A stretch of DNA of 30,796 bases from Bacteroidota bacterium (lineage in GTDB: Bacteria > Bacteroidota > Bacteroidia > AKYH767-A > 2013-40CM-41-45): assembly GCA_043753795.1 (NCBI GenBank), contig JAYUWA010000534.1, forward strand, positions 1 to 30,796. Direction: 5' to 3'. The notes beneath the pieces were generated by a model. That model did not search any database. It saw only the letters and a program-made list of their open reading frames with translations, and was not told the origin of the DNA. The translations under genes and the position numbers were made by a program. Every line of letters begins with the position of its first letter. Position 1 is the stretch's first letter. Shown piece by piece: positions 6,287 through 30,796 of the stretch.

Positions 6287-6392
6287 ATCTGCGATCTTAT
6301 CTGCGAATTTATCTGCGCAATCTGCGGGAGAAAAACACACTGTAATTTCTCCCGCAGATTGCGCAGATAAATACGCAGATAAATACGCAGAT
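6287..6392. repeat. 106-bp imperfect palindrome made of mirrored ATCTGCG/CGCAGAT units
   Basis: ATCTGCG at 6287, 6299, 6311, 6320 and CGCAGAT at 6353, 6362, 6374, 6386. Perfect 27-bp inner arms 6307-6333 and 6346-6372 around a 12-nt loop. Confidence 0.95.
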
Positions 6393-6396
6393 TTGG

Positions 6397-6415
6397 AGCT
6401 ACATTAATTGTAGCT
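6397..6415. other. Small hairpin AGCTACA-TTAAT-TGTAGCT downstream of the GT87 gene
   Basis: Perfect 7-bp stem with no clear U-tract, so not called as a terminator. Confidence 0.4.
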
Positions 6416-6462
6416 TGCTTGTCCTTGTATCAAAAACTTATTGAATCTTAATGTTAAAATTT

Positions 6463-7704
6463 TTATGCATCACTCCTTGCATATTTCACTACAAAAATTG
6501 CAGTCATCACAAAAAACAAATTCAACAAAATCAATCTGTAAAACTGAAATGGCAGAAATGAAATCTTCGAATTGACAAAATCAAAAACAATCCCACTGAA
6601 ACCAAATACAAAAAGCGAACAAATAAGAAACGCTATGAAACGCTCATTCTCTTTTTGCAATCCGATCAAAAGTGCAACCGGAAATAATAGAAGCAACAAA
6701 TGATAACTGGCAGATGCAGGTGAAAATGCCAGTGCGCATAATGAAAGGAAAACAACTGAGTAAGCAGACAGGTCAGGGTGATTGTTTAATCTGTGCAAAG
6801 TATAAATCAGCGTTGAAATCAATCCTACGAAAACGATTGCCTTTAGGATTATCACACCATTTGGCCAATCAAATACAGGATTTGGATTAATGATCGAATC
6901 ATTCGAAAACAAATTCAACGCAAGTGAATTCCACGATTGAAATGCAAATGCATACGGATTCTGTCCTTCGAGCTTACCATTCAAATGATCAAACAAAACT
7001 GAATTTATAAAATCATTACAGGGCTTTGTGCCGATAATGATAATTGAAAGTAAAGCAATGCCGATCAAGGAAATTAAGGTTGCGACAATTGCTTTGAAAT
7101 TTTTTCTGATCAGGAATGCCGGTAATGTTACTACCGGAAAATATTTTATGGCTATACCGGAAGCAAGTAAAAATCCTGACCAACCGGATCTTTTTTCGGC
7201 CTGCATCCATGCAATCATCCACATTAAAAGCACCAAAAGGTAAACTTGTCCAAGGTAGAAGTTGTTGTATAAAGCAATACCAGATAACAAAACAACAGAT
7301 GCACTTTGCTGCAAATTGAGTTTGGAGATCTTCGAGAAAAGAACAATCACTCCATACAATAAAAGGATATTGATGCATGTCCAGATCCTCTTAGCAGTAA
7401 TTGGCGGAAATCCGGCAACCGGCAACATAACAAATACTGTCGGCGGTGGAAACGGAGCAAACTTCCCTTCCTGATCTATTCCATAGCTGTGAATCAGATC
7501 ATTAAAGGTAGTATTGGAATAGATGCCTGATAAATCCTTTCCTTCGAGTAACAATTTGGATGAAACATAGTAATTAGGGAAATCACTGCGGACATCAGTC
7601 ATTGCCGGATAGATACCTTTCCAAATTTGAATTAAAACCAACATTAACAAGAAAATTCTGCCCGAAACGGAATTCGAGAAAAGCAGATTTTTGAACCACA
7701 TCAT
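6463..7704 (-). CDS. GT87/DUF2029-like membrane glycosyltransferase (GT-C fold)
   Basis: SDFPNYY near the N-terminus, FAPFPPPT, NNFYLGQVYLLVL, GIAIKYFP, and many hydrophobic segments. Confidence 0.85.
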   Translation of the reverse strand: MMWFKNLLFSNSVSGRIFLLMLVLIQIWKGIYPAMTDVRSDFPNYYVSSKLLLEGKDLSGIYSNTTFNDLIHSYGIDQEGKFAPFPPPTVFVMLPVAGFPPITAKRIWTCINILLLYGVIVLFSKISKLNLQQSASVVLLSGIALYNNFYLGQVYLLVLLMWMIAWMQAEKRSGWSGFLLASGIAIKYFPVVTLPAFLIRKNFKAIVATLISLIGIALLSIIIIGTKPCNDFINSVLFDHLNGKLEGQNPYAFAFQSWNSLALNLFSNDSIINPNPVFDWPNGVIILKAIVFVGLISTLIYTLHRLNNHPDLSAYSVVFLSLCALAFSPASASYHLLLLLFPVALLIGLQKENERFIAFLICSLFVFGFSGIVFDFVNSKISFLPFQFYRLILLNLFFVMTAIFVVKYARSDA

Positions 7705-7751
7705 CGGGCTAATTTAGGAGAATTCGGGAAGAGATGTTGGTGAAATTCTGC

Positions 7752-7759
7752 TAAATTTG
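7752..7759 (+). promoter_or_regulatory. Bacteroidota sigma-A -7 element (TAAATTTG) for the acyl-CoA dehydrogenase gene
   Basis: Exact TAnnTTTG match in the divergent intergenic region. No clear -33 element. Confidence 0.55.
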
Positions 7760-7772
7760 CTACGCCTTTTTG

Positions 7773-7937
7773 AAGGTCAAAGGTCAAAGGTCAAAGGTCA
7801 AAGGTCAAAGGTCAAAGGTCAAAGGTCAAAGGTCAAAGATCAAAGATCAAAGGTCATAGATCATAGATCAATGGTCAATGCATAAAGTTTAAGCCAAGTC
7901 AAACCGCAAATAACCTTTTACCCTTGACCCTTGACCT
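7773..7937. repeat. Heptamer tandem array (AAGGTCA)n with an inverted partner arm
   Basis: 9 perfect AAGGTCA copies at 7773-7835 plus 6 mostly variant units to 7877. Reverse-oriented arm TAACCTT-TTACCCT-TGACCCT-TGACCT at 7911-7937. Confidence 0.97.
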
Positions 7938-7985
7938 AATGAAGAGGGTAAGTTTAAGTAAAAAGAAAAAAGAAAAAAGAAAAAA

Positions 7986-9164
7986 ATGTCAAAAGACCGC
8001 TACCAATACCACGATTACTATTTAATGGATGAACTTCTTACTGACGAACATCGGTTGGTTCAAACAAGTGTGCGCGATTGGGTGAAGAAAGAAGTTTCAC
8101 CAATTGTTGAAGAAGCATGTCAGAAAGCAGAATTTCCCAAACAGTGGATCAAAGGTTTGGCTGAGATCGGTGCATTCGGTCCTTACATACCTGCAGAATA
8201 TGGTGGTGGTGGAATGGATCAGATCGCTTACGGTATTATCATGCAGGAATTAGAGCGTGGCGATTCAGGTTTGCGTTCGACTGCATCCGTTCAAAGTTCA
8301 TTGGTGATGTATCCGATCTACACTTATGGTAGTGAAGAACAACGTAAAAAATATTTACCAAAACTTGCTTCCGGTGAAATGATGGGTTGCTTTGGATTGA
8401 CAGAACCGGATCATGGTTCGAATCCGAATGGAATGATCAGTAACATCAAAGAAAAAGGTGATCACTTTATTTTGAACGGGGCAAAGATGTGGATCAGCAA
8501 TGCACCATTTGCAGACATAGCAGTTGTGTGGGCAAAAGACGAACAAGGAATTGTTCGCGGATTGATCGTTGAACGTGGAATGAAAGGATTCACAACTCCG
8601 GAAACACATGGCAAATGGTCGCTGCGTGCAAGTGCTACAGGCGAACTTGTTTTCGACAATGTTATTATTCCGAAAGAAAATATTTTACCGAATGTAAAAG
8701 GCTTGAAAGGTCCATTGGGTTGTCTGAATTCTGCACGTTACGGAATTTCATGGGGAGCAATTGGTGCTGCTCTTGATTGTTACGATTCAGCATTAAGATA
8801 TTCGCAGGAAAGAATTCAATTCGGAAGACCGATTGGTGGTTTCCAGTTGACTCAGAAAAAACTTGCCGAGATGATCACTGAAATTACAAAAGCACAACTG
8901 CTTACATGGAGATTAGGTGTTCTTAAAAACGAAAACCGTGCAACACCGGCGCAGATCTCAATGGCAAAAAGGAATAACGTGAACATGGCATTGCAGATCG
9001 CAAGAGAAGCAAGACAAATTCACGGTGGTATGGGAATCACCGGCGAATATCCCATCATGCGCCACATGATGAATCTTGAATCAGTAATTACCTATGAAGG
9101 AACGCATGATATTCATCTTTTGATTACGGGGATGGATGTTACGGGGTTTAATGCGTTTGAGTAA
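7986..9164 (+). CDS. gcdH: Acyl-CoA dehydrogenase, most likely glutaryl-CoA dehydrogenase
   Basis: ELERGDSGLRSTASVQSSLVM, CFGLTEPDHGS, LNGAKMWISN, LRASATGEL, QIHGGMGITGEYPIMRHMMNLESVITYEGTHDIH. These are GCD-type motifs. Confidence 0.88.
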   Translation: MSKDRYQYHDYYLMDELLTDEHRLVQTSVRDWVKKEVSPIVEEACQKAEFPKQWIKGLAEIGAFGPYIPAEYGGGGMDQIAYGIIMQELERGDSGLRSTASVQSSLVMYPIYTYGSEEQRKKYLPKLASGEMMGCFGLTEPDHGSNPNGMISNIKEKGDHFILNGAKMWISNAPFADIAVVWAKDEQGIVRGLIVERGMKGFTTPETHGKWSLRASATGELVFDNVIIPKENILPNVKGLKGPLGCLNSARYGISWGAIGAALDCYDSALRYSQERIQFGRPIGGFQLTQKKLAEMITEITKAQLLTWRLGVLKNENRATPAQISMAKRNNVNMALQIAREARQIHGGMGITGEYPIMRHMMNLESVITYEGTHDIHLLITGMDVTGFNAFE

Positions 9165-9264
9165 TTTCAGGTTAGAAGTCAGAGATCACATCGCAATGGT
9201 CATACGAGTCAAAAGTCGAAAACTTTAGGTTAAAGGTCAGTGGTCAAAGCCATTGACCTTTTTT
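9165..9264 (+). repeat. Degenerate GTCAAAG-period heptamers ending in a terminator-like hairpin
   Basis: TAGGTTA-AAGGTCA-GTGGTCA at 9226-9246. Stem GGTCAA (9242-9247)/TTGACC (9253-9258) followed by a T-run at 9259-9264. Confidence 0.6.
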
Positions 9265-9381
9265 CTGCGGATAGTATGTGTAAATCTGCTGGAAATAAAA
9301 CACAGAGAACATAGATTTCACAATGAGACCATAGAATTTTTCTGCGGATATTCTGCGTGTTCTGCGTAGCTCTGCGGGAAA
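9261..9381. repeat. TCTGCG-family repeat cluster
   Basis: TCTGCG at 9264, 9341, 9352, 9361, 9371. 13-bp direct repeat TTTTCTGCGGATA at 9261 and 9338. Confidence 0.8.
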
Positions 9382-9521
9382 TTATTTTTTTTACAACCAT
9401 TTATCGTCTGTTCACTATTCCAATTTTTCATTTGGTCACAAATTTATTTTTCGGTTTATCATAAAAAGTACATTCAATCATTATTATTAGTGATGTAGTT
9501 CTCCCATTTAATCTACGTACT

Positions 9522-11099
9522 ATGAAAACCATATTTTTAATTTCAATTTTATCATTGATATGTGTTCATGAAGCATTTTCTCAGGCAAATTGTTCCAGCC
9601 CTCTCTCTGTTGCAGTTTGTCCGGATACTTTATTAATGTATCAAACAAATGCCGGTATGGGCGATGATGCGCCGGCAGGAATTAATTATACAGGAGAGGA
9701 TCTGGTTTATAGAATAACAGTTCCGGTTACAACGATAAAAATTTTCATATCGATTGCAAATGCAACAGGGCTGATCAGGTCAAGACTCGTAAAAGACAGT
9801 TGTACCAGTGTTACCGGACCAGGCTTTCCTTTCAATACAGGAACAAATTCATATACTTTTAGTGTAAGCAATTCGACAACGTACTATCTGTGGCTGGATG
9901 CAGCAACCACAGTTACTTTTGATATCGGTATCGGAGCTGATACAAGTTCGACAGTTGTTAGTCAACCTGACACACAGGGAAACTGGATGCCCGATCAATC
10001 CGGTTGTTACGTACCTGTCTTTCATCCAGCTAAACCATTCTATCAGGTAAAGTTTAATAACGTTTTTCAGACTGACCCTATGACTTTAGCACCATTAAAT
10101 GTAGCCGGTTCATTTTGTATTAATACTATCTTAAAGAATACAACAGGCGATGAAGGTGTACGAAAATTTGAATTCTCATTTGGTACAGGGTATATCAACA
10201 TTCAGGCGCCGGACAGTATTGCAGGAACATACAATACTGGTTACTGGATAAAATCAGGCATAGGAAATTTTATCAAATATATATTCTATGAAGCAGCTTC
10301 AACAGGTCGAGGTGATTTTGATGGTTCACCAAATTCGTGTTTGAGTTATGAGTTCTGTTTTACTCTTATACCGGTTTCAAACAGTCCTTCTATTACAGAA
10401 GTTGATGTTTATGTTGAAAGTGATGGATATGGCGCAGCATACACTGGTAATTTAAATTCCGGTTGCTGTCCTGCGTTTTTCCCAAATTGCCATTTCAACC
10501 AAGGAGGTAGTAGTTCAGGAGTAAATGGATTTGGATTTGGAGTCAATGATCCCGGCGGTTCATTACCTGTTGAATTAGTAAAATTTGATGTCGTTGATGA
10601 AAATAATATTATCCGTATAATATGGACTACTGCTTCAGAAATAAACAACGACTATTTTACAATAGAAAGATCCATCGATGCAATGAATTGGAAAGAATTA
10701 GAACAGACAGATGGCAGTGGCAACTCAACTCAATATTTAGATTACGCTATCATCGATCCATTTCCTTTAAGTGGTACTTCCTATTACAGGCTTAAGCAAA
10801 CAGATTTTGATGGTAAAACTTCAGCCTTTCCTCCTAAATCAATTCATCATGATGGAGCAAAAGATTTTGATGTATACCCGAATCCGGCAAAAGAAAAACT
10901 AACTGTAAGAAATTTTTCAGCAGCTGAATATGAAGCGGAATTGTTTTCTGCAATAGGAATGGAAATGTATGTTCCGGCCCATGCGACATCAAAAGAAAAA
11001 ATATTTGATACTTCACAAATTTCGTCAGGTATATACTTCCTGATCATCAGATCAAAAAATGAAATTAAAAGAAGTAAAAGAATTGTAATCATTAAATAA
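9522..11099 (+). CDS. Secreted protein with T9SS type A sorting domain
   Basis: Signal peptide (MKTIFLISILSLICVHEAFSQ), LPVELVKF module with YYRLKQTDFDGK, and CTD VYPNPAKEKLTV...GIYFLII...KRIVIIK. Confidence 0.9.
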   Translation: MKTIFLISILSLICVHEAFSQANCSSPLSVAVCPDTLLMYQTNAGMGDDAPAGINYTGEDLVYRITVPVTTIKIFISIANATGLIRSRLVKDSCTSVTGPGFPFNTGTNSYTFSVSNSTTYYLWLDAATTVTFDIGIGADTSSTVVSQPDTQGNWMPDQSGCYVPVFHPAKPFYQVKFNNVFQTDPMTLAPLNVAGSFCINTILKNTTGDEGVRKFEFSFGTGYINIQAPDSIAGTYNTGYWIKSGIGNFIKYIFYEAASTGRGDFDGSPNSCLSYEFCFTLIPVSNSPSITEVDVYVESDGYGAAYTGNLNSGCCPAFFPNCHFNQGGSSSGVNGFGFGVNDPGGSLPVELVKFDVVDENNIIRIIWTTASEINNDYFTIERSIDAMNWKELEQTDGSGNSTQYLDYAIIDPFPLSGTSYYRLKQTDFDGKTSAFPPKSIHHDGAKDFDVYPNPAKEKLTVRNFSAAEYEAELFSAIGMEMYVPAHATSKEKIFDTSQISSGIYFLIIRSKNEIKRSKRIVIIK

Positions 11100-12216
11100 A
11101 AAGATCCGTAGATACTCTGTCTGCAAAGTATTTACCTTTATCACTTAGAGTAAATAGGTTATTATTGTGCAGAACAAGGCCAGCCTTAATTTGAGAATCA
11201 AGTCTGCTCAATAATTCGGAACTCAGTTGATCGCCAAATTCTTCTATGACAAAATTCAAATTCACACCCCAATTGGTTCGCATAGAAGTTAAAATGTATT
11301 CATTGAACTTATCTTTCATAGAAAGTTCTTCAACCTCCGCCGGAATTATATTTTCAGCAAGTGAACGAATATAAACCGGATTATTCGAAACATTCCACTG
11401 TCGACTATCGCCATTGTATGAATGTGCCGAAGGACCAACGCCTAAATATTTTTCTCTCTTCCAGTAAGATGTATTGTGACGAGAGTATTTTCCATTGCGC
11501 GCAAAGTTGCTGATCTCATAATGTTCAAAACCGTTTTCTGCGGCGGCTTTCATCAGCATTTCAAAATGAAGTGCTGCAGCACCATCATCAATGTCTTTAA
11601 CTTTATTTTGTTTGATCATTGATGCCAATGCAGTTCTTGGCTCAACTGTCAACGAGTAACACGACAAATGATCAACACCCAAACCAAAAGCTGTTTTCAT
11701 GTTTTCTTGCCAGTCCTCCGGAGAAAGTTCAGGCAAACCGTACATCAAATCAATTGTTATATTTTCAAATCCTGCTGCATTCGCATCGCTTACACATTGC
11801 AAGGCTTGCACAGCATTGTGTGCGCGGTTCATCAACAACAGATCCTTTTCTCTGAATGATTGTATTCCTATACTCAAACGATTGACTCCGGCCGATCTCA
11901 ACATTTGCAGAAGTTCAATTGTAAGGTCATCTGGATTGGATTCTAATGTAATCTCTGCCTCTACCTCCACTACAAAATTTTCCTTTATGGTATTTAATAA
12001 AAGGTCAAGCTGATTTCTGTTCAGCAACGATGGAGTTCCGCCGCCAAAATAAATTGTTTCGACTCTTTCACCTGCCAAATAATTCTTTCGAAGAATAATT
12101 TCCCCGGAAATGGCCTGAACCATATCATTCATCAATTCCTGCGAAGTAGAAAAATGGAAATCACAGTAATGACAAGCTTTTTTGCAAAAAGGGATATGAA
12201 GATAAATACCGGACAA
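11092..12216 (-). CDS. hemW: Radical SAM family heme chaperone HemW
   Basis: IYLHIPFCKKACHYCDF, TIYFGGGTPS, EITLESNPDD, NRLSIGIQSF, YEISNFA, SRHNTSYW, YLGVGPSAHS. Confidence 0.93.
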   Translation of the reverse strand: MSGIYLHIPFCKKACHYCDFHFSTSQELMNDMVQAISGEIILRKNYLAGERVETIYFGGGTPSLLNRNQLDLLLNTIKENFVVEVEAEITLESNPDDLTIELLQMLRSAGVNRLSIGIQSFREKDLLLMNRAHNAVQALQCVSDANAAGFENITIDLMYGLPELSPEDWQENMKTAFGLGVDHLSCYSLTVEPRTALASMIKQNKVKDIDDGAAALHFEMLMKAAAENGFEHYEISNFARNGKYSRHNTSYWKREKYLGVGPSAHSYNGDSRQWNVSNNPVYIRSLAENIIPAEVEELSMKDKFNEYILTSMRTNWGVNLNFVIEEFGDQLSSELLSRLDSQIKAGLVLHNNNLFTLSDKGKYFADRVSTDLFI

Positions 12217-12260
12217 AATCTAGTGTGGAGTTTGAGTGTGTGGTGTGAGCAACTCACAGC

Positions 12261-12292
12261 AATCCGAAATCCGAAATCCGAAATCCGAAATC
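12261..12292. repeat. Heptamer tandem repeat (AATCCGA)4
   Basis: Four perfect copies plus AATC, abutting the histidine kinase stop codon. Confidence 0.95.
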
Positions 12293-13469
12293 ATTTCTTC
12301 AATACGATCCTGAACGTCGTTCCTTTATTCATCTCAGAATTCTTAACGAAAATTTGTCCATCGTGATATTCTTCAATGATTCTTTTACTTAGAGAAAGTC
12401 CAAGTCCCCAACCACGACTCTTTGTTGTGAATCCGGGTTTAAAAATTGTTTTGTACGATGATTTCGGAATTCCTTTACCTGTATCACAGATATCAATGTA
12501 AACAAACTGATGCTGATTAGTAATGTTCACATCAATTTTTCCATTCCCGCTCATTGCATCGATGGCATTCTTTAGAATATTTTCAATGACCCAATCGAAC
12601 AAAGGTACATTCAATGGAGCCCATACTTCAGTTGGCGGTGTTTTCAGATCAAAGATCACTTTATCAGAACTTCGTGTTTGAATATACTCCACAGAATGTT
12701 TGAGCACCTCATGGATATTCACTTTAGTAAGTGATGGGGCTGAACCAATCTTAGAAAAGCGTTCAGTGATTGTTAGTAATCGGTTAATGTCTTTCTCAAT
12801 TTCATTGGTATAGTCGCTGCTCATTCCTTTGAGTCGCAAAAATTCCAGCCATGCAACCAATGATGAAAGTGGAGTTCCCAATTGATGGGCAGTTTCTTTT
12901 GCCATTCCAACCCACACTTGATTTTGTTCCGCTTTTCTTGAATTACTAAATGCCAGATAAGAAACAAGTAAAAACAATGCAATGACTGCTAACTGGAAGT
13001 ATGGATAATAGCGTAGACGAATCAGTAATTCTGAATCGCGATAAAGAATATATTGTTTAATGGTTCCGATATGAATTTCAATCGGATCATGCACAGCGCG
13101 CATTTCTAAGATCTGCTTTCTCAAATAGTCTTCCCTCAGCGATTGCACCGAATCAAGATTCCGTGAAGAGATCGGATTAAACTTATCGTCGGCCCAGATA
13201 ACAGGAATTGTATTGTTGTTACTGATCACATTTGATAAAAAATTAATATCGGTATTCAACTCGCTAACATCAGCAAGCCGGCGAGTTGCCTCTGCCCAAA
13301 GTTCGATCTTCTTGCGTTCTTCAACTGCAAGTTTATTGACCAAACGATTGGTATACCATAGGGAAGCGGTGCCGATCATTAAGGCTGCCAGGAGCAGCAA
13401 TAATTTCCAACGTTGTTTTTGAGTATAAATATTCACGTAAAACTTGGTATTTGAATAATCTCCAGGCAC
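12291..13469 (-). CDS. Membrane sensor histidine kinase (no cognate regulator in window)
   Basis: Two TM segments, H-box ETAHQLGTPL, N-box ENILKNAIDA, G1 DTGKGI, F/G2 FKPGFTTKSRGWGLGL. The true start may be the GTG at 13436. Confidence 0.93.
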   Translation of the reverse strand: MPGDYSNTKFYVNIYTQKQRWKLLLLLAALMIGTASLWYTNRLVNKLAVEERKKIELWAEATRRLADVSELNTDINFLSNVISNNNTIPVIWADDKFNPISSRNLDSVQSLREDYLRKQILEMRAVHDPIEIHIGTIKQYILYRDSELLIRLRYYPYFQLAVIALFLLVSYLAFSNSRKAEQNQVWVGMAKETAHQLGTPLSSLVAWLEFLRLKGMSSDYTNEIEKDINRLLTITERFSKIGSAPSLTKVNIHEVLKHSVEYIQTRSSDKVIFDLKTPPTEVWAPLNVPLFDWVIENILKNAIDAMSGNGKIDVNITNQHQFVYIDICDTGKGIPKSSYKTIFKPGFTTKSRGWGLGLSLSKRIIEEYHDGQIFVKNSEMNKGTTFRIVLKK

Positions 13470-13532
13470 TTACCTAAAGCATTCTCCTGATCCGATTGCG
13501 CAAAGATGCGGGAAATTCTTAGAATAGAAAAA

Positions 13533-16055: not shown

Positions 16056-16156
16056 CTGATCAAGCAGTTCGATTAGGGAACGCTATCGGCAATTTGAAAT
16101 TGTACGACTGTAAGAATTGATAATAGAAAACGAAAAAGCACAGAAAAGGTTGCTTA

Positions 16157-17443: not shown

Positions 17444-17466
17444 TTCCTTTGTATGTAAAGCCAAGT

Positions 17467-20014: not shown

Positions 20015-20077
20015 TTTTATGTGTTTAAATTTTCAGTAAAGATATGGGTAAATAGCCTTCAATTTCTGCTCTCAAAT

Positions 20078-20176
20078 AAAAAATTAAACACTGAGAACAC
20101 TAAAATTCGTCACAAGAACACGTCACTCGTGTCCCGATAGCTATCTAGATTGTGTTAAAAACTTAGTGTTAGTGTT
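20078..20176. repeat. Dispersed ACACTAA-type repeat element with inverted arms
   Basis: AAAAAATTAAACACTGAGAACACTAAAATTCGTCACAAGA closely matches 30564-30605. TTAGTGTTAGTGTT at about 20163-20176 is the inverted arm. Internal CCCGATAGCTATC. Confidence 0.7.
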
Positions 20177-20204
20177 GAAATTTAAGCTTAAAATACTCTG
20201 CCTT

Positions 20205-22562: not shown

Positions 22563-22689
22563 TTTATCGAAGTTTGTATTATACTCACCATTAAACTGAT
22601 TTTTCCTGAAAATGTTTTGAAAAAGGACGAATTAACACCATTATAACATCTCCTAAAACATCTGTTTTTGCTTTTAAATCGTGGTATAA

Positions 22690-23169
22690 TCAAGACTTAG
22701 CTGAAAGTTGTTCTTTCTGCTGATATCTTTCAACCTGAACTCCAAATTGTTTCAAAAACGCTACACCTTCATCGATCCCTATACCTTTATATTCAGCATA
22801 GCTATTCAGATAAATAACTTTTTTTATACCCATCGTGAAAATGATGCGCGCACAAGGCAGACAAGGAGAAAGTGTAACATAAATAGTACACCCTTCAATA
22901 GGAACACCATTTTTCGAAGCATAGAGTATGGCATTTTGCTCGGCATGCAAAGCGAGGGAACAACTGCCTTTACTATCACGAGGACAACCGACTTCCGGCC
23001 ATTTTTCATCACAATTATGGGTACCGGCAGGTGGGCCATTATAACCAAGCGAAACGATTCGGGTATCTTTAGTCAGTACAGAGCCGACTTTTATTTTTAC
23101 GCAATGTGATTTATGGGCCAGATTCTGGGCCAGCTCCATATAGATCTCATCAAAACTAGGACGATGCAT
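22690..23169 (-). CDS. dCMP deaminase (ComEB-like)
   Basis: SLGYNG, HAEQNA, TLSPCLPC. Likely start is the ATG at 23169 (MHRPSFDEIYMELA); ORF track starts at 23202. Confidence 0.92.
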   Translation of the reverse strand: MHRPSFDEIYMELAQNLAHKSHCVKIKVGSVLTKDTRIVSLGYNGPPAGTHNCDEKWPEVGCPRDSKGSCSLALHAEQNAILYASKNGVPIEGCTIYVTLSPCLPCARIIFTMGIKKVIYLNSYAEYKGIGIDEGVAFLKQFGVQVERYQQKEQLSAKS

Positions 23170-23173
23170 GCGG

Positions 23174-23181
23174 CAAATGTA
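23174..23181 (-). promoter_or_regulatory. -7 promoter element TACATTTG for dCMP deaminase
   Basis: Exact TAnnTTTG ending 5 nt before the ATG at 23169. Confidence 0.55.
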
Positions 23182-23231
23182 GGGATTTTTAGACAGGGAC
23201 ACATTAAAACCTTTTCTGCTATTATAGCGAC

Positions 23232-23738
23232 TTAGGCAATGACAGATTTTACTCTCTTTCTTTCAGATGTCCTTATACTTTTATCATTTATGATTTCTAA
23301 TTCCCTTTTCTTTTCTAAAACACGATACCAATATAAAGCAGGTATCCAATTATTTGAATGGATCTCTAACCTAACAAAAATCGTTTTGTTAGGTTCCTCC
23401 TTATTATTTAAAATTCGACTTAACCTGGTAACATGTAAACTTATTTCTTTAGAGAATTCATTATCCTTTTTATTTATAGAATGTATATACTCTCTCAAAA
23501 AGTGACTAAAAGAATATTTAGCGTCATAGGTATTACTTCTAAAGTAATCTTCCATCGTATACTTTATTTGCAGTATACGTGAATAAAGTTTCTCCCTTTC
23601 AGACATGTGCTTTAGACGGTTCAAACGAAAAGTAGAAAACTCTTTATCAGCCTCTTCTTGTTGCTCCTGTGATAATTTGCTCGGTAAAATATGTGAGTCG
23701 GCAGGCACGTCACTTGTATGTTTTTTTTGAGTTTTCAT
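23232..23738 (-). CDS. XRE/Cro-like HTH protein (HigA-like antitoxin or regulator)
   Basis: FSHFLREYIHSINKKDNEFSKEISLHVTRLSRILNNKEEP reads as a Cro/C1-type HTH. AT-rich gene. Confidence 0.65.
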   Translation of the reverse strand: MKTQKKHTSDVPADSHILPSKLSQEQQEEADKEFSTFRLNRLKHMSEREKLYSRILQIKYTMEDYFRSNTYDAKYSFSHFLREYIHSINKKDNEFSKEISLHVTRLSRILNNKEEPNKTIFVRLEIHSNNWIPALYWYRVLEKKRELEIINDKSIRTSERKRVKSVIA

Positions 23739-23749
23739 TTCTTAGTTAT

Positions 23750-23968
23750 TTAAATATTCTTCTCCTCTTCAAAATACTTCAACGAAATCAAACCTAATAT
23801 GGTTTTTGACTCAAGCATCTGAAGTTTAAAAACTAAATTCTTTTTCTCAAGTTTCCAGTCAAAGCCTGGAAATCTTGCGCTTTTTGAAATTATATTATAA
23901 TCACCATTCTCAATTGGTTCAATCCTTACTTCTATTCTATCACCAGAATCCGTTTGAGAAATATACAT
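23750..23968 (-). pseudogene. Short 72-aa ORF, probably a truncated partner (putative GNAT-like toxin) of the HTH gene
   Basis: Reads like a real protein start (FDWKLEKKNLVFKL...ILGLISL) but stops abruptly 11 nt before the HTH ATG. The family assignment is from recollection and was not searched. Confidence 0.5.
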
Positions 23969-24038
23969 ACGTAAATATACAAATGTTTATCAATTTTGTC
24001 AAGATAATTTATCATTATTATCAATTAAAAAATACTAA

Positions 24039-24074
24039 ATTTAGCGAAAATTGTACATTTAGGGATAATTGTAC
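24039..24074. repeat. 18-bp tandem duplication (candidate operator)
   Basis: ATTTAGCGAAAATTGTAC followed by ATTTAGGGATAATTGTAC (16/18 identical). Confidence 0.7.
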
Positions 24075-24106
24075 TCCTAAGGTAGGTTTTTGAATCTTTA
24101 ACTAAG

Positions 24107-24114
24107 CAAATATA
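24107..24114 (-). promoter_or_regulatory. -7 promoter element TATATTTG upstream of the 72-aa ORF/HTH pair
   Basis: Exact TAnnTTTG on the minus strand, in very AT-rich DNA where chance matches are likelier. Confidence 0.45.
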
Positions 24115-24188
24115 AAATTGGCTTAACTCATTGTTTAATAAAATCAAAATACTTCACCATCGACTTTATTTCCGATGCGATCAATTAC

Positions 24189-26216
24189 TCAATTGCTACC
24201 AATTCTATTAAGCCACATCTGTGCATCTGCATAATCGGGCTTTAATGTCAATGCCTTCTGCCAGTTTTCACGGGCGAGCTGATTGTTTTTTCTGAAAAAA
24301 TAAATTCCACCCAGATTATAGTAGGCTTCTGCATTAGCAGGATTAATTTCAATTGCAATTGTATAAAACCGTGACGATTCGTCTACTTGATTTTTTGCAA
24401 ATGCTGCATTACCTAGTTTAACCAACTGAGAACTGACCAATGTTCTGCCGGCGGAATTTGAAACAAGTTTGTCCGCTGTATTCAACGCAAACTTCGCCTG
24501 AGGAATTGAATCAAGGCTTGCATACGAAAGTGCCATGTAAACAAAAGAATCATGGTAGTCAGGAATTATCTCAATCGACTTTTTATAATAGTAAATTGCA
24601 TTATGATAATCTGAAAGTTTGAAGTATGCTGACGCGCAATCGTAATAAGCTTTCGCATGATCCGGCTTAATTGATATCGCCATTTTATAAAAGATTATTG
24701 CAGAATCGTTTTTATTCAAATTAAAATAGAGATTCCCACGGTTGACCAAAGCATCAGAATTTTCAGGATCGTTGAGCAGCGCTTTTTCATTATCTAACAG
24801 TGCATTTGCAAGATCATTTTTCTGATAAAAGATCACAGCCCGATTATGATAACCATCCGGACGATGGGGTGCAAGTTTTATTACTTCTGTAAAATCAGAA
24901 AATGCTTTATCAATTTCGCCTCTCGATTCGAAATATTGTCCGCGATTCATATATGCAGTTGGTACAGTGTGATCTTTTTCAATTATATCAGTCCAGAGGG
25001 AGATACTGTTTTTCCAGACCGGAACTCTTGCATACGTAAGCCCGATAAACATCAAACCAATACCAGCCATAACAATTGCGAACTTTTTTTCCAATTCAGG
25101 TTTATTCTCAACAAGGCAAAAGATAGCCATGAAAATCCCAACGGCTGCCAGGTAGGTAAACCGTTCATAGATCAATGCTGAATTTACGGCTACAATATGC
25201 AATACCGGAAAGATGCAAACTGCGAAAAATAATATACTTCCTGCAAGTCGTGGATTCTTTTTATACGAAAAGAAAATTGCCGCTGTTACTGTTGCTAAGG
25301 CAACTATCCCGATAACAAGTCCTGTGCTATATTCTGAACTTCCACTGAGCGGAAACTGATGTATCGCTATCTGATTTACAGGCATCATTATTTTTACGAT
25401 GTACAATCCAAATGCTATCGTTGAATACAAAAGTTTATCAAGGAATGTAAGCGGTGTAGAAAATTTATCGGCTACCAGTTCTCCTTCCCCGGAAATTGCA
25501 ATTACTCCAATTAATAAAGTCATGATCAAATAAGGAATTTTATTCACAAATCTTTTTGCATCAAACTTTTTATCCAACATGAGATCAGAAATAATTAAAA
25601 CAAAAGGTAGCGTGATTGCCTGAACTTTTGATAGCAGAGAAATCGCACCAAAAAACAAACTGACTATTAAAAATAATTTTTTTTTAGTGTGATAATATTT
25701 CAAATAAGACAACCAGGACAATAAAAAGAAAAACGAATAAACGACATCTTTCCTTCCGGCAATCCACACAACCGCTTCAGTGGCTAATGGGTGAATTGCA
25801 AAAAGCAATGTTATTATGAGAGAGGCTAGATCTTTAAACTTAAGTTGCCTAAGACAAAAGAAAAGAAGTAAAACATTCAGAAGATGAAAGAACAAATTTA
25901 CACCATGGCTCCATCCAGGGTTCAGTCCTGACATTTCAGAATCGAAAGCAAAGGTGAGCATCACAACTGGGTTGTAACTCAACATAAACTTTTCGGTAAA
26001 AATTTTTTTTGTCTTTTCGAAATTGATATCTCTTATATAAGGTGCTTCTTTCAGGTAAGCTTTATCGTCCCAATTAGTAGAATCAAAACCTGTGACCGAT
26101 TGATAAACTAAAAAGGTTAACAGCAAAATAACAACAAGTCCGGCAGCAGTATAAATCCTGTTATTTGATACTTTCTCAATCGACTTTTTTTCAGCTTTAG
26201 AAGCAATTCGGGACAT
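24189..26216 (-). CDS. TMTC-like GT-C membrane protein with C-terminal TPRs (putative protein O-glycosyltransferase)
   Basis: NWDDKAYL, HGVNLFFHLLN, FAIHPLATEAVVWIAGRKD, LLSKVQAITLP, ERFTYL, VWKNSISLW, then about 8 TPRs. Likely start is the ATG at 26216 (ORF track 26306). Confidence 0.85.
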   Translation of the reverse strand: MSRIASKAEKKSIEKVSNNRIYTAAGLVVILLLTFLVYQSVTGFDSTNWDDKAYLKEAPYIRDINFEKTKKIFTEKFMLSYNPVVMLTFAFDSEMSGLNPGWSHGVNLFFHLLNVLLLFFCLRQLKFKDLASLIITLLFAIHPLATEAVVWIAGRKDVVYSFFFLLSWLSYLKYYHTKKKLFLIVSLFFGAISLLSKVQAITLPFVLIISDLMLDKKFDAKRFVNKIPYLIMTLLIGVIAISGEGELVADKFSTPLTFLDKLLYSTIAFGLYIVKIMMPVNQIAIHQFPLSGSSEYSTGLVIGIVALATVTAAIFFSYKKNPRLAGSILFFAVCIFPVLHIVAVNSALIYERFTYLAAVGIFMAIFCLVENKPELEKKFAIVMAGIGLMFIGLTYARVPVWKNSISLWTDIIEKDHTVPTAYMNRGQYFESRGEIDKAFSDFTEVIKLAPHRPDGYHNRAVIFYQKNDLANALLDNEKALLNDPENSDALVNRGNLYFNLNKNDSAIIFYKMAISIKPDHAKAYYDCASAYFKLSDYHNAIYYYKKSIEIIPDYHDSFVYMALSYASLDSIPQAKFALNTADKLVSNSAGRTLVSSQLVKLGNAAFAKNQVDESSRFYTIAIEINPANAEAYYNLGGIYFFRKNNQLARENWQKALTLKPDYADAQMWLNRIGSN

Positions 26217-26382
26217 ATAAGTTGGTTTGACCGTAATTTGGTGGTAGTGTTGATAAGAATTGCAATTTATAACGAAAAACCTGTAACACAAAACGATAAC
26301 TATCAACGTGTTGCGCTATCTGTCCTGTAAATGACAATAGTTCTCGTTAAGAGTTTTTCCTTTGAAATTACGCAATGATTTC

Positions 26383-26390
26383 TATTTTTG
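26383..26390 (+). promoter_or_regulatory. Sigma-A promoter (-7 TATTTTTG; TTTG at 26361-26364) for the lipoprotein gene
   Basis: TAnnTTTG plus an upstream TTTG 18 nt away. ATG at 26407. Confidence 0.65.
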
Positions 26391-26406
26391 CATCAAACTA
26401 TCTTAT

Positions 26407-27264
26407 ATGAAAAGGTTCTTAACACGCTCACTGGCATTTGGTATGATTGCAATGATTGCTGTTTCTTGCAGTAATAACAAACCTGAGCAAACAACTGATG
26501 AATTTGCAGATACGACTACAGTTGTTGACACAGCAAAACAAAAAGCCAGAGAGAAACTAGAATTTAAATTCTTTTACACAATTGCCAACCTTCCATCACC
26601 GATGGAAATGATAAATGCCATTTATGAGAATAATGTTCCGTTCAACAGAGATTTGCTAAACTCATCATCGAAAGCATCCAACTATAGTACAGCCTATAAA
26701 AAAGCAGTCAACTATGGTATTTATGGAATTGATATGGCCTACACAGCTTTTTATGGACAAAATCAAGATCTGCTGGACTATTATTCTACAACAAAAAAAA
26801 TGGCAGAGAAGTTAGGAGTTCAGGAAACTTTTGACAATTTCACTTCCAGCTTCCGTGAAAATTCGGATAACAGAGATTCATTGGTAAAGATAATTGATCG
26901 TGCATATACAGAAACTGATTCGTATCTGAGAAGTAATCGCCGGCTGGAAGTTGCATCGCATGTATTAGCCGGATCCATAGTAGAAGTTCAGTATCTGAGT
27001 ATTGAGCTTTTGAAAAACATGGAATACGGGCCGTCGAATGCAGATCTTTTTGAGCGCGTGTACAATCAAAAACTTTATCTTGACAATCTGATCAATTTAT
27101 TTTCCGATCTTAATAACTACCCAAGTTCTGCGCAATTGCTTGAGCAGTTAAAAGGCGTAAAAGTCGTTTTTGATGAAGTCAAAGAACCAAAACAACTTAC
27201 AAAAGAAAACCTAGCAAAAATGAGTGCAGCAATGGGCGCTGTGCGAGCGGATATGATTAAATAA
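26407..27264 (+). CDS. Lipoprotein of unknown function (alpha-helical)
   Basis: Signal MKRFLTRSLAFGMIAMIAVS-C (ORF track starts at 26362). LPSPMEM...KKAVNYGIYGIDMAY. No catalytic motif recognised. Confidence 0.8.
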   Translation: MKRFLTRSLAFGMIAMIAVSCSNNKPEQTTDEFADTTTVVDTAKQKAREKLEFKFFYTIANLPSPMEMINAIYENNVPFNRDLLNSSSKASNYSTAYKKAVNYGIYGIDMAYTAFYGQNQDLLDYYSTTKKMAEKLGVQETFDNFTSSFRENSDNRDSLVKIIDRAYTETDSYLRSNRRLEVASHVLAGSIVEVQYLSIELLKNMEYGPSNADLFERVYNQKLYLDNLINLFSDLNNYPSSAQLLEQLKGVKVVFDEVKEPKQLTKENLAKMSAAMGAVRADMIK

Positions 27265-27270
27265 TTGATC

Positions 27271-27466
27271 AAGGGCAAGGGTCAAGGGTCAAGGGTCAAG
27301 GGTAAAAGGTCAAAGGTCAAAGGTCAAAGGTCAAAGGTCAAAGGTCAAAAGATATTAGTTAAATTTTATCCTATAATATTAAAGGAGGAATTTGTTCCTC
27401 CTTTAATATTTATTGAATCAAATTAATTGCAATGTCATTAACCTTTGACCCTTAACCATTGACCCT
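27271..27466. repeat. (AGGGTCA/AAGGTCA)n array, central hairpin and inverted heptamer arm
   Basis: About 11 units at 27271-27347, including 6 perfect AAGGTCA at 27306-27347. Reverse arm TAACCTT-TGACCCT-TAACCAT-TGACCCT at 27439-27466. Confidence 0.97.
27375..27410. terminator. Perfect 16-bp hairpin (possible terminator)
   Basis: AATATTAAAGGAGGAA-TTTG-TTCCTCCTTTAATATT. Confidence 0.6.
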
Positions 27467-27508
27467 TTTGTTTTAAATATTTGACTTTTCAGCTTATACG
27501 TATTTTGC

Positions 27509-27516
27509 TATATTTG
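27509..27516 (+). promoter_or_regulatory. -7 promoter element TATATTTG for the ABC gene
   Basis: Exact TAnnTTTG ending 8 nt before the ATG at 27524. Confidence 0.55.
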
Positions 27517-27523
27517 ACTACCT

Positions 27524-30500
27524 ATGAGTGAAAAAATACTCCAGGCTCTGATGCAACTTTTTGCGATCGGAGCCGCACTGGAACGATTAACATTACAAAG
27601 CCGATCTGTTGTTGAAGCTTTTTTAAGACAGCAAGTTAGCTTGCAGCGAGTCGACGAATATCTGCGACTTTTTGATGAATACATGGAAAAGTATTCAGGT
27701 GGTGGCGATGATATTACGCGCACACGAAAAAAAATTGCCTTCAGCTCGGTACGTGCATTGCGGATCTGTACTGAGATCAACAAGGAATTAAATACTCGCC
27801 AAAAGTACATCGTTTTTTTACGTCTTGCAGAATTTATGCAATCATCGGAACTTGAAATCACGGAGCCGGAAAAAGAATTTTTAGAAACGGTTGCAAATGT
27901 TTTTAATATCAGCAACGAAGAATATTCACTATGTCAATCGCTTGCTTCATCAAAATCTACTCTTAAAGATTTTGATTCACAAAACGTATTAATAGTAAAT
28001 GCAAGAGAGAACATCGATATTCAAAATGCGCATCAGTTGTTGCATGACGATCTTGATGGAATAATGATCTTTCTATATCTGAAAAATGCAGGCATATTTT
28101 TCTTATCGTATCGTGGTCAGGACTCATTTATCGCAAATGGACAACCTATCGACAGCATCCGTGCAGCAGTTATTACACAAGGAGCTGTTATCAGATGTTC
28201 ACGTTTAAAGCCGATCTATTACAGAGACATCATCAGACCATTTCTTTCGGCAAATGAATCTGATACATTTCAATTTTCTGCAAGAAATATTGACTATGTA
28301 TTTAGCAATGGAAAGAAAGGATTACACAATATCAATTTCACTGTAAACTCAGGCAACTTAACCGGAATAATGGGTGGCAGTGGTGCAGGGAAATCTACAT
28401 TACTGAATGTTCTGAATGGAAGCATGAAGCCTTCATCAGGACAGGTTCTGATCAATGGAAAAAATATTTACGAAGGAAATATTGCTGAAGGACTCATTGG
28501 AAATATTCCGCAGGACGATCTGTTGATAGAAGAACTGAGTGTCTTCCAGAATTTATTTTACAATACAAAATTATGTTTCGGCGAATTGAGTGATGAAGCC
28601 ATCAATACGAAAGTACTGGATGTGCTCGATTCACTAGGATTGATGGAGATCAAAGATCTTAAGGTCGGAAGTGTTTTAAACAAGACGATAAGCGGCGGAC
28701 AAAGAAAGCGGTTGAATATAGGATTGGAATTAGTAAGAGAACCTTCTATTCTTTTTGTTGACGAGCCAACCTCCGGTCTTTCATCTCGGGATGCTGAAAA
28801 CGTAATGGATCTTCTTAAACAACTTGCATTAAGTGGCAAGTTGATTTTTGTTGTTATTCATCAACCATCTTCAGACATATTCCGTTTGTTCGATCAGCTT
28901 TATATGCTGGATACCGGTGGTTATCCGGTATACTTCGGAAATCCTGCTGATGCCTTGATCTATTTCAAGCGTCAAGTACACCTCACAGATGCTGAACAAA
29001 GTGAATGTTCAGTTTGCGGAAATATTAATCCGGAGCAGCTTTTCAATATCATAGAACTTCATGAAGTAGATGAATTCGGCAAGTCAACCAACAATAGAAA
29101 AGTTACACCAAAAGAATGGAATGAGCTGTACAAAAATGTTGAAGCATCAACTGTTGAAGACAGTAAACTGGAATTGTCCGTAAAGAGAAATAAAAAAGCC
29201 AGCCCATTTGCTCAATGGAAAATTTTCTCCACCAGGGATTTGCTATCTAAACTCAGTAACAAACAATACATGCTGATCAATTTACTGGAGGCACCTGTAT
29301 TGGCTTTGGTACTTGGTTTTATTCTTCGTTATTCATCCGCATCAAACTATGAACTGATCTCCAATCCAAATTTACCTGCTTATCTTTTTATCTGCGTCAT
29401 TGTTTCATTGTTCATGGGATTGTCTGTTAGTGCGGAAGAGATCATCCGTGACAGGAAGATAAGACAGCGGGAGAAGTTTTTACATTTAAGTAAAACGAGT
29501 TACTTTCTCAGTAAGGTAAGTTTGCTGTTTATCATTTCAGCAATTCAAACATTATGTTTTGTGTTGATTGGAAATGCATTGATGGGAATTCACGATATGA
29601 ATATGACTTATTGGATGATCTTATTCACAACAAGTTGTTTTGCAAATTTACTTGGATTAAATATTTCAGCAGCTCTTGATTCTGCAGTTACTGTCTACAT
29701 ATTGATTCCATTTCTGCTGATACCACAAATATTATTAAGTGGAGTGATCGTCAGATACGATAAATTACATCCACTGATAAATTGCAATGAAGGAGTTCCT
29801 TTGATTGGAAATGTAATGACTTCACGTTGGTCGTATGAAGCACTCACAGTTGAGCAGTTCGCCAACAATCCATTTGAAAAACAATTTTACGCAGAAGAAG
29901 CTGCTATGAGTCAGGCAACCTATAAAAAAGACTGGTGGATAGCAGCAATGCGTGAAAAGACTGATCGATTGGAAAGAATGATGCTGAACAAAGTCAATAA
30001 AGATTCAATCCTGGTCCCAATAACAATTCTGAAAACAGAATTAAGCAATGAACATTCCCTAAATGCTTCAAAAAAGTCGCAACTTATCTTACAACTCAGT
30101 TATGAAAAAGTAAATAGCGGTACGATACCTCAGCTTCGCGCTACACTAGATGGATTGAGAGAATTCTACATAGATAAATTCAACAAAGCCAATGAAGCAA
30201 AAGAATTGAAGATTGCGCACATGACATCAGGTCAAAACGGAGAATCAGAATTTCTCTTCATGAAAAACCGCTATGAAAATGAAAGTCTGGAAGAGATGGT
30301 AAGAAATAGTAATCAGGTAGAACGTTTAGTTGTTACTGACGAAAAGATCATTCAGCGATTCGAACCTGTTTTCCATAATAATCCAAATGAGGAATTTTCA
30401 AAAGCTCCAATGTTTTCATATTCAAAAAATGTCTTTGGAAATAAAACAAGTACCTTATACATAAACATGCTGGTAATCTGGCTTATGTCACTTTCACTTT

Positions 30501-30565
30501 ATGTGACGCTGCAGTTTGATGTTTTCAGGAAGGTGATTGGAATGTTTTCAAAACGAAAGCAGTAA
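27524..30565 (+). CDS. Fused ABC transporter (NBD plus ABC2-type TMD, ABCG-like) with a TerB-like N-terminal extension
   Basis: Walker A GGSGAGKS, signature ISGGQRKR, Walker B ILFVDEPTSGLS, H-loop VIHQP, and multi-TM ABC2 domain with SRWSYEAL. About 250-aa N-terminal extension (TerB-like call is inferred). Confidence 0.9.
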   Translation: MSEKILQALMQLFAIGAALERLTLQSRSVVEAFLRQQVSLQRVDEYLRLFDEYMEKYSGGGDDITRTRKKIAFSSVRALRICTEINKELNTRQKYIVFLRLAEFMQSSELEITEPEKEFLETVANVFNISNEEYSLCQSLASSKSTLKDFDSQNVLIVNARENIDIQNAHQLLHDDLDGIMIFLYLKNAGIFFLSYRGQDSFIANGQPIDSIRAAVITQGAVIRCSRLKPIYYRDIIRPFLSANESDTFQFSARNIDYVFSNGKKGLHNINFTVNSGNLTGIMGGSGAGKSTLLNVLNGSMKPSSGQVLINGKNIYEGNIAEGLIGNIPQDDLLIEELSVFQNLFYNTKLCFGELSDEAINTKVLDVLDSLGLMEIKDLKVGSVLNKTISGGQRKRLNIGLELVREPSILFVDEPTSGLSSRDAENVMDLLKQLALSGKLIFVVIHQPSSDIFRLFDQLYMLDTGGYPVYFGNPADALIYFKRQVHLTDAEQSECSVCGNINPEQLFNIIELHEVDEFGKSTNNRKVTPKEWNELYKNVEASTVEDSKLELSVKRNKKASPFAQWKIFSTRDLLSKLSNKQYMLINLLEAPVLALVLGFILRYSSASNYELISNPNLPAYLFICVIVSLFMGLSVSAEEIIRDRKIRQREKFLHLSKTSYFLSKVSLLFIISAIQTLCFVLIGNALMGIHDMNMTYWMILFTTSCFANLLGLNISAALDSAVTVYILIPFLLIPQILLSGVIVRYDKLHPLINCNEGVPLIGNVMTSRWSYEALTVEQFANNPFEKQFYAEEAAMSQATYKKDWWIAAMREKTDRLERMMLNKVNKDSILVPITILKTELSNEHSLNASKKSQLILQLSYEKVNSGTIPQLRATLDGLREFYIDKFNKANEAKELKIAHMTSGQNGESEFLFMKNRYENESLEEMVRNSNQVERLVVTDEKIIQRFEPVFHNNPNEEFSKAPMFSYSKNVFGNKTSTLYINMLVIWLMSLSLYVTLQFDVFRKVIGMFSKRKQ

Positions 30566-30605
30566 AAAATTAAACACTAAGAGTGCACTAAAATTAGTCA
30601 CAAGA
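30564..30605. repeat. Second copy of the ACACTAA-type dispersed repeat
   Basis: AAAAAATTAAACACTAAGAGTGCACTAAAATTAGTCACAAGA versus 20078-20117. Confidence 0.7.
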
Positions 30606-30646
30606 GCATGCATTCTTACTTGTAAACCCTTTGTTCGAAATTATTG

Positions 30647-30718
30647 CCCCTCGACTTCGCTCGGGGACCGCCCTTCGACTTCGCTCGGGGACCGCCCTTC
30701 GACTTCGCTCGGGGACCG
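30647..30718. repeat. Three tandem 24-bp REP-like units
   Basis: CCC(C/T)TCGACTTCGCTCGGGGACCG x3 with no spacers. Each unit can fold into a GC hairpin. Confidence 0.95.
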
Positions 30719-30740
30719 TCTTATAAGTGGTAATGTGTGA

Positions 30741-30796
30741 ATTTTTTGCGAAGAAAATTTAACTTCAATTTTAAGGGAATTTTCTTCGCAAAAAAT
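30741..30796. repeat. Perfect 19-bp inverted repeat with 18-bp spacer
   Basis: ATTTTTTGCGAAGAAAATT (30741-30759) and AATTTTCTTCGCAAAAAAT (30778-30796). Confidence 0.9.

Follow-up and report, generated by a model that had tools for sequence, protein, structure and literature searches.

Heptamer-repeat hairpins between the genes of a sediment Bacteroidota genome and their association with four-helix-bundle genes

The window is the whole stretch of 30,796 nucleotides analysed here, contig C534 of a metagenome-assembled genome (G000; 3.46 Mb, 681 contigs, 37.7% GC) of an uncultured Bacteroidota organism from sediment, and its subject is the short repeats that lie between its genes. We lean towards reading these repeats as cargo-less members of a genome-wide set of hairpin-forming extragenic elements, the stems of which are tandem short units, mostly of 7 nt. 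The gene-bearing form is a TIGR02436 four-helix-bundle cassette in the hairpin loop at operon junctions (nuoF/nuoG, sufB/sufC), a layout that resembles the intervening sequences (IVS) of rRNA. Between close relatives, elements appear, disappear and change in size. Two window proteins with type IX secretion sorting domains are consistent with placement in the Bacteroidota. G000 is the genome under study and the other G-numbers (G001–G031) denote relatives; the syntenic block was compared with G008, G012, G006, G014 and G010, and two junctions of the gene gcdH were compared in 20 relatives.

Period-7 arrays and their inverted arms

Arrays were located with Tandem Repeats Finder (TRF) and by direct reading of the sequence. 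G000 contains 582, 272 and 111 period-7 arrays at TRF scores of at least 30, 40 and 50, compared with 156, 14 and 5 arrays of period 6 and 166, 15 and 2 of period 8. A block-shuffled genome yielded two period-7 arrays at a score of at least 40. At the same score, 230 of the 272 arrays (85%) lie in the roughly 12% of the genome that is left non-coding by open reading frame (ORF) calls, unlike periods 12 and 15, which are mostly coding. This check of the period spectrum gives the non-coding excess of period 7 that an earlier reading of the window, made from its sequence alone, had led one to expect. About 140 distinct units are present, the most frequent being AAAGGTC (80 arrays), AAAGTTC (51), AACGAAT (39) and AAGGGTC (26), and several of the commonest units differ by one substitution. 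The density of arrays per kb of intergenic DNA is 0.93 in convergent, 0.65 in tandem and 0.15 in divergent regions, and gaps of 10 nt or less account for 32% on the stop side and 7% on the start side.

An inverted partner within 4 kb was found for 132 of the 272 arrays, with a median gap of 28 nt, so the typical object is a hairpin with a repeat-array stem. The sequence-only reading had described the arrays as often forming inverted arms, and this holds genome-wide for about half of them. All 13 GCTTCGTAG-N4-CTACGAAGC cores in G000 are flanked by inverted AAGTTCA arrays, with the apical four bases varying. A different core, TCTGCGGGAGA, is present in 49 copies; three to four ATCTGCG cores usually precede it, and the mirror image often comes after it. 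At least two families (AAGTTCA with its GCTTCGTAG..CTACGAAGC core, and TCTGCGGGAGA) are therefore dispersed as structured units in their own right, which argues that the arrays are not independent slippage products alone. The proposal that the window holds the empty sites of an arm-bounded cassette system stands in so far as arms, cargo and polymorphism all occur elsewhere; no filled allele of a window junction was found in the relatives and strains compared, and with at least two dispersed structured families "empty site" is too narrow a label.

Four-helix-bundle cassettes and the states of operon junctions

The window contains no TIGR02436/PF05635 gene; the family search of the whole genome gave matches on contigs C403, C107, C531 and C561 only. 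Elsewhere in G000, widely spaced arm pairs enclose small genes. On C107, an ORF of 138 aa (TIGR02436, E-value 7e-27; PF05635, E-value 8e-23) lies between nuoF and nuoG within GGTCAAA/TTGACCT arms, and on C531 a frameshifted copy lies between sufB-like and sufC-like genes within GTTCAAG/AACTTTG arms. The gene on C403 is flanked on one side by a TGAAAAG arm; the matching ACTTTTC array stands at the start of contig C501, where the orthologous neighbour gene is also encoded. The fourth four-helix-bundle locus, on C561, is cut by the contig end. At least three of the four genes (C107, C531, C403/C501) are thus located between inverted heptamer arms.

The association extends to the genus. In 20 genus genomes, approximately 100 TIGR02436/PF05635 matches were found (0–11 per genome, with at least two in 19 of the 20). 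Most of the 30 loci that were fetched are bordered on either side by tandem arrays in inverted orientation; the units vary among cassettes, and their periods are mostly 7 and also 5, 8, 9 and 10. A strict arm test, set at three or more shared inverted 10-mers between the 400-nt flanks, was passed by 17 of 26 genus loci (65%) and by 6% of 1547 control genes in G000; no formal P value is attached to this difference because the genomes are related. In 20 of the 26 loci, the four-helix-bundle gene and the gene upstream of it share one orientation. The statement in the sequence-only reading that such genes are commonly flanked by heptamer arms is strongly borne out in G000 and in the genus. The same statement had named GxxExxY genes as cargo, and this part fails here, since none of the three TIGR04256 genes of G000 is flanked by heptamer arrays; GxxExxY was dismissed as cargo for this genome. 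Two of the three lie beside a long palindrome, GTCTGAACCGGGATTT..CTGATT...AATCAG..AAATCCCGGTTCAGAC (C137:17780–17910 and C102:13100–13210), and a palindrome of this GTCTGAACCGGGATTT type, distinct from the heptamer families, may accompany the GxxExxY gene. In a separate locus (L003 464–667, G000 C427:3363–3566), an ORF of 67 aa is located between inverted TGACCCT-type arms 424 nt apart. Its product exhibits a weak, sub-cut-off match to the type VII secretion-associated family NF033532 (E-value 3.6e-10), and it may represent a second kind of cargo.

Filled and empty alleles, which had been anticipated from the window, are found at the nuoF/nuoG, nrdB/nrdA and sdhA/sdhB-like junctions elsewhere in the genome and, in the relatives compared, at none of the window junctions. 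The nuoF/nuoG junction is filled in eight species, and in each of these both arms carry one unit in inverted form: GGTCAAA in G000, GAGGTCA in G008 and G012, AAAAAGM in G014, AAGTAAT/AAGTATG in G013, AAAGTCA in G001, GAATTCA in G004 and AAGGTCA in G002. The cargo proteins of this junction fall into a single well-supported clade, in which one further locus and a long-branch group are nested, and by their sequences may be of single origin. The cargo of G000 and G008 is 61% identical and NuoF is 98% identical. At this junction both arms have changed unit together around an orthologous cargo gene. A decayed gene (3' remnant) with a right arm is found in G015 and G016, and G017 has an arms-only hairpin in which (AATCAAC)x~17 faces (GTTGATT)x4. 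G007 is without arms, and G006 has a clean junction of 19 nt.

The nrdB/nrdA junction of G000 contains an arms-only hairpin (C452:2126–2236) of AAAGACG/AAAGACT units, and the same AAAGACT-type family flanks the four-helix-bundle gene that fills this junction in G017 and G015. G018 has a pseudogene here, most other species are arms-only with other units, and G031 is clean. In G004, G003 and G010 (L122, L121 and L126) the junction holds an ORF of approximately 260 aa, methyltransferase-like by eye, with heptamer arrays beside it. At the sdhA/sdhB-like junction, six relatives are filled and G000 retains only the right arm and the 3' spacer of the cassette. Comparison of G000 with its relatives at these junctions indicates that its arms-only hairpins and solo arrays can be states of a gene-bearing element.

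Repeat features and insertions of the window

The following features were located in the window; coordinates are those of the whole stretch.

6287–6392, unstranded: TCTGCG-type palindrome, four ATCTGCG cores (spacing 12, 12 and 9 nt) facing four CGCAGAT cores
7773–7878, plus strand: long left arm, AAGGTCA x15.1 (TRF, direct reading)
7920–7936, plus strand: short inverted arm, ACCCTTG x2.4, pairing with the AAGGTCA array
7956–7985, plus strand: GAAAAAA x4.3 array, adjoining the ATG at 7986 of the acyl-CoA dehydrogenase gene
9165–9231, plus strand: degenerate AAGGTCA-like run, beginning at the acyl-CoA dehydrogenase stop codon
9232–9264, plus strand: 13-bp hairpin of AAGGTCA/TGACCTT units followed by a T-run (fold −18.4 kcal/mol, z −5.6)
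9261–9378, plus strand: TCTGCG-type direct array with CTCTGCGGGAAA at its end, a member of the 6287–6392 family with one arm
12222–12249, unstranded: AGTGTGG/GTTTGAG run, left-arm remnant of a heptamer hairpin, of which G006 and G014 have the complete form (AGTGTGR)
12261–12292, unstranded: AATCCGA x4.6 solo array, overlapping the histidine-kinase stop codon
20087–20177, unstranded: ACACTAA-type dispersed palindrome, two units per arm (fold z −2.3)
27271–27349, plus strand: AAGGTCA-type left arm (AAGGGTC/AAAGGTC units), x11.3 (TRF, direct reading)
27376–27411, plus strand: 16-bp hairpin in the 88-nt spacer between the arms, a terminator-like stem without a clear U-tract
27438–27467, plus strand: inverted arm (TTAACCTTTGACCCTTAACCATTGACCC); the fold of 27322–27470 pairs the arms (z −8.8)
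30566–30624, plus strand: half copy of the ACACTAA-type element, beginning at the ABC-transporter stop codon
30646–30796, unstranded: three 24-nt GC-rich units (GCCCTTCGACTTCGCTCGGGGACC) and then a palindromic end, running to the contig end

Head-to-tail units with a TRF period of 7 are present at 7773–7878, 7956–7985, 12261–12292 and 27271–27349, and inverted arms capable of pairing at 6287–6392, 7773–7936 and 27271–27467; the arrays at 12261–12292, 7956–7985 and 9261–9378 are solo, without an inverted partner. RNA folding of the window hairpins gave z scores from −5.6 to −13.7. The five repeat types that the sequence-only reading had named are all real: the AAGGTCA, AATCCGA and GAAAAAA types are true period-7 arrays by TRF, and the other two are not. 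The AAGGTCA site that it gave at 9226 corresponds to the degenerate run at 9165–9231 with the hairpin and T-run behind it. The TCTGCG type has a 7-nt core and a period of 9–12, and the ACACTAA type has only two units per arm and is a dispersed palindrome of approximately 100 nt. Comparison with the ORFs agrees with that reading in placing every window site between genes with no ORF interrupted. Its remark that several arrays begin near stop codons applies to the 9165 run, the 12261 array and the 30566 element, which lie at or overlap stops, and matches the genome-wide enrichment behind stops.

The element at 6287–6392 is a near-perfect palindrome of approximately 50 bp (RNA fold −74.9 kcal/mol, z −13.7) between a radical-SAM/B12 gene and a GT87 gene, and carries no cargo. 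One-armed copies of the TCTGCG type, such as that at 9261–9378, are numerous genome-wide. The G008 junction that matches window 6148–6462 (L072, G008:C9, about 97260–100100) is 2.8 kb in length and includes copies of the 24-mer/palindrome element and further genes, where the window has the TCTGCG palindrome only.

The AAGGTCA array at 7773–7878 is common to G008, G006 and G014, with differing copy numbers and unit variants, and a fold of 7800–7940 pairs it with the short arm (z −6.5). Upstream of it lies a conserved TAAATTTG box, which by eye looks like a −7 promoter motif; should the box be such a motif, the array would belong to the 5' leader of the gene for acyl-CoA dehydrogenase (gcdH). 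The GAAAAAA array that follows is kept at an equal position in G008, G012, G006 and G014 and, having no inverted partner, is probably an unstructured A-rich translation leader. A-rich leaders are known in Bacteroidota, and start-adjoining GAAAAAA arrays fit such leaders. At least seven comparable A-rich arrays adjoin start codons elsewhere in G000; GAAAAAA/AAAAACA arrays that end at or overlap the start codon occur at C401:9337–9391 and C631:229–310 and on C95, C316 and C506. These start-adjoining arrays recall the start-codon-proximal TAACTGA arrays of Beggiatoaceae (PMC4679880).

Directly after the gcdH stop codon, nearly every relative has a different heptamer family (GTAATTR, GAGAATT in more than 50 units, ATTCTGA as a perfect hairpin, TAATTAG, ACGAATC). 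Judged by sequence, the hairpin at 9232–9264 is shaped like an intrinsic terminator and is a putative one for the acyl-CoA dehydrogenase gene; an equivalent hairpin and T-run lie behind gcdH in G006 and G014. Individual copies such as this one, and the GAAAAAA arrays before start codons, look as if they are used by the host. The AATCCGA array at 12261–12292 comprises four perfect units in the window, where G008 and G012 have a degenerate stretch of equal length. Arrays of this unit flank one of the four-helix-bundle genes of G012 (L069). The ACACTAA palindrome at the 20087–20177 junction is present in G008 and G012 and absent in G006, and dozens of copies of this type are found in related genomes.

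At the g21/g22 junction, the arms and central hairpin at 27271–27467 are shared with G006, and G008 has two AAGTCAA units and a terminator only; both G006 and G008 have a hairpin with a T-run at the junction that holds 27376–27411. A "joint" of 27312–27437 in metagenome contigs was discarded, as its shorter side comprises 27 letters and it most likely represents another AAGGTCA hairpin elsewhere. A CAGGTTT hairpin is present in G008 at a junction that is bare in the window. The 24-mer family of 30646–30796 adjoins, with identical sequence, a Y1 (IS200/RAYT-like; RAYT, transposase associated with repetitive extragenic palindromes, REPs) transposase gene at the start of C554 (C554:1–173), and several copies at 96–98% identity are found in G008. 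It looks like a classical REP-RAYT family of its own kind outside the heptamer system, and is probably the cause of the contig end here.

Two insertions in the window are specific to G000 relative to the genomes compared. The 990-nt insertion at 23191–24180 is absent from G008, G012 and a related strain in two sediment metagenomes, and it is the only real metagenome indel on 7601–27600, unrelated to heptamers. It contains an ORF of 168 aa (23232–23738, no Pfam match, C-terminal half helix-turn-helix-like by eye) and one of 72 aa (23750–23968), which may form a toxin-antitoxin-like pair. The region 16157–17464, found only in G000, encodes a type IX secretion-sorted protein of 435 aa with Por_Secre_tail and Reg_prop matches, and in five relatives the site is a spacer of 241–617 nt with assorted hairpin repeats. 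Both 16157–17464 and 23232–23968 count as ordinary gene insertions and lack heptamer arms.

Explanations and comparison with known systems

Were the window repeats cargo-less members of such an element set, the hairpin sites would be transcribed non-coding DNA, namely 3' ends, intercistronic spacers and, at 7773–7985, a putative 5' leader. Replication slippage would lengthen and shorten the arrays, and the complementarity of the arms would be kept by selection on the stem or by intramolecular template switching between the arms. The stem may act as RNA, either as an RNase III-type processing site, by analogy with the rRNA IVS, or as a terminator or stabiliser, and arms-only copies could arise both from loss of the cargo and from independent spread of the hairpin.

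Several points weigh against this reading. The window DNA was sought in RNA runs and no match was found. Arms-only hairpins and solo arrays exceed the four-helix-bundle genes more than tenfold (at least 56 strict hairpins and four genes), and the family search of G000 gave no further remnants of such genes, so descent from a cassette is not demonstrable for most copies. No filled allele was found at the window junctions in the five syntenic relatives, at the gcdH junctions in the 20 relatives or, at strain level, in contigs of four sediment metagenomes aligned to 7601–27600. No target-site duplication or insertion boundary was recovered from the junction sequences, which are too diverged to align. 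The coding and non-coding fractions derive from crude ORF calls of our own, the counts across the genus are non-independent because its genomes are related, and the assembly breaks at arrays (681 contigs), which leaves the array census incomplete.

One rival explanation holds that these are ordinary slippage-prone simple repeats: slippage would favour 7-nt units, the units would accumulate where selection allows (outside frames divisible by three), and the link to the gene would be a by-product of shared intergenic space. Copy number and unit variants do differ between close relatives at one site, periods divisible by three occur in coding DNA where 7 and 14 do not, and a bacterial heptanucleotide excess is already published, as stated in the text of PMC4679880 and PMC4692102 that cites Mrazek 2007. 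We hold this account to be quite improbable, given that half of the arrays are paired with an inverted array, the median gap being 28 nt, that some families are dispersed with conserved non-repeat cores, that inverted arms occur at 65% of four-helix-bundle loci and 6% of controls, that arrays are four to six times rarer in divergent intergenic regions, and that both arms change unit jointly around an orthologous gene. Somewhat easier to entertain, though still unlikely as a full account, is that the repeats serve the host in regulation (as bidirectional intrinsic terminators, as mRNA-stabilising 3' stem-loops, as leaders) and are selected for doing so, their repeat make-up being incidental, a view that is compatible with the cargo-less hairpin reading. 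It accommodates the enrichment behind stops and in convergent regions, the hairpin and T-run of 9232–9264 at the gcdH end with its equivalents in G006 and G014, and the GAAAAAA array kept before the ATG in five species; in addition, A-rich/T-rich units (AAAGGTC/GACCTTT) naturally yield the symmetry of A-tract, stem and U-tract. Many hairpins lack a U-tract, however (for example 6287–6392), copies lie within essential operons (nuoF/nuoG, sufB/sufC, nrdB/nrdA) where termination would be harmful, and presence, unit and length vary among close relatives, with some junctions clean.

The least probable of the alternatives, to which we give very little weight, is that Y1 (RAYT/IS200-like) transposases act in trans to mobilise the hairpins as REP-type elements, with the four-helix-bundle gene as a passenger. 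G000 does encode five strong PF01797 genes, the elements are extragenic with a preference for 3' ends as REPs are, and the GTAG...CTAC of the AAGTTCA family core presumably recalls REP heads. Three of the five Y1 genes are nevertheless flanked by GC-rich palindrome families of their own and not by heptamer hairpins, and a fourth has no palindrome within the short contig flank available. RAYT mobilisation was rejected, as no heptamer hairpin was seen beside any of the five PF01797 genes and the repeats observed there belong to other, GC-rich families.

A wider proposal than that of cargo-less hairpins, which we offer tentatively and regard as rather less than probable, is that the hairpins and the PF05635 gene form one widespread self-maintaining class of element, with gene-bearing "autonomous" members and arms-only derivatives. 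An RNA or single-stranded DNA hairpin mechanism that rewrites both arms would then be a main cause of the heptanucleotide excess long known from intergenic DNA of bacteria, and the class would be the origin of the ORF-bearing rRNA IVS. Heptanucleotide repeats have been recognised since 1990–2007 as the most frequent kind of long simple repeat in bacteria, and we know of no accepted cause for them. The PF05635 "intervening-sequence" proteins are widespread and have a solved structure; to our knowledge they have no known function outside diversity-generating retroelements. The genus provides a natural series (gene-bearing, decaying, arms-only and clean) at single junctions that links heptamer repeats with the PF05635 gene, and this series, together with the joint unit change of the arms, makes the question experimentally approachable. 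In practical terms, heptamer arrays fragment the assembly into 681 contigs, and repeat finders may misassign such arrays to other repeat systems.

Among known systems, Rho-independent terminators share with these elements a stem-loop behind the stop codon, sometimes with a T-run (9232–9264); they differ in that most copies here have no U-tract, many stems are far longer (approximately 50 bp at 6287–6392), and copies also occur in a leader and within operons. REPs and their mosaic assemblies (bacterial interspersed mosaic elements, BIMEs) with RAYTs are similar as abundant extragenic palindromes at gene 3' ends, in lineage-specific families gained and lost between relatives, but the stems here consist of tandem units in variable copy number, and the Y1 genes of G000 are flanked by other, GC-rich REP families.

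The ORF-bearing IVS of 23S rRNA (Ralph & McClelland 1993, PMC47033, as cited in PMC3936711) likewise place a small PF05635/TIGR02436 gene within complementary stem arms, co-oriented in a host transcript, and ORF-less versions exist as well. Here the elements lie between protein-coding genes, the arms are 7-nt tandem arrays that vary by site, and the window copies are without an ORF; no window site is an insertion in a 23S rRNA helix, all being between protein-coding ORFs. PF05635 genes have also been described lodged in cas operons (PMC3936711).

The intergenic heptanucleotide repeats of other bacteria (long simple sequence repeats, the short tandemly repeated repetitive sequences of cyanobacteria, TAACTGA, GGGAATC) share the period of 7, the nearly exclusive intergenic location and the length variation in close relatives; some adjoin start codons and some form convergent inverted pairs. 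A heptanucleotide excess and a slippage proposal are credited to Mrazek et al. 2007 in PMC4679880 and PMC4692102; TAACTGA arrays are reported from Beggiatoaceae, Cyanobacteria and Bacteroidetes (MacGregor 2015, PMC4679880), and Xanthomonas GGGAATC arrays include 70–75 convergent pairs (Rehm 2015, PMC4692102). The literature search returned such heptamer-repeat papers and none that links the repeats with the four-helix-bundle gene. In these papers each genome or lineage has a single unit and no cargo gene is reported, whereas G000 has about 140 units, conserved cores and arms around four-helix-bundle genes.

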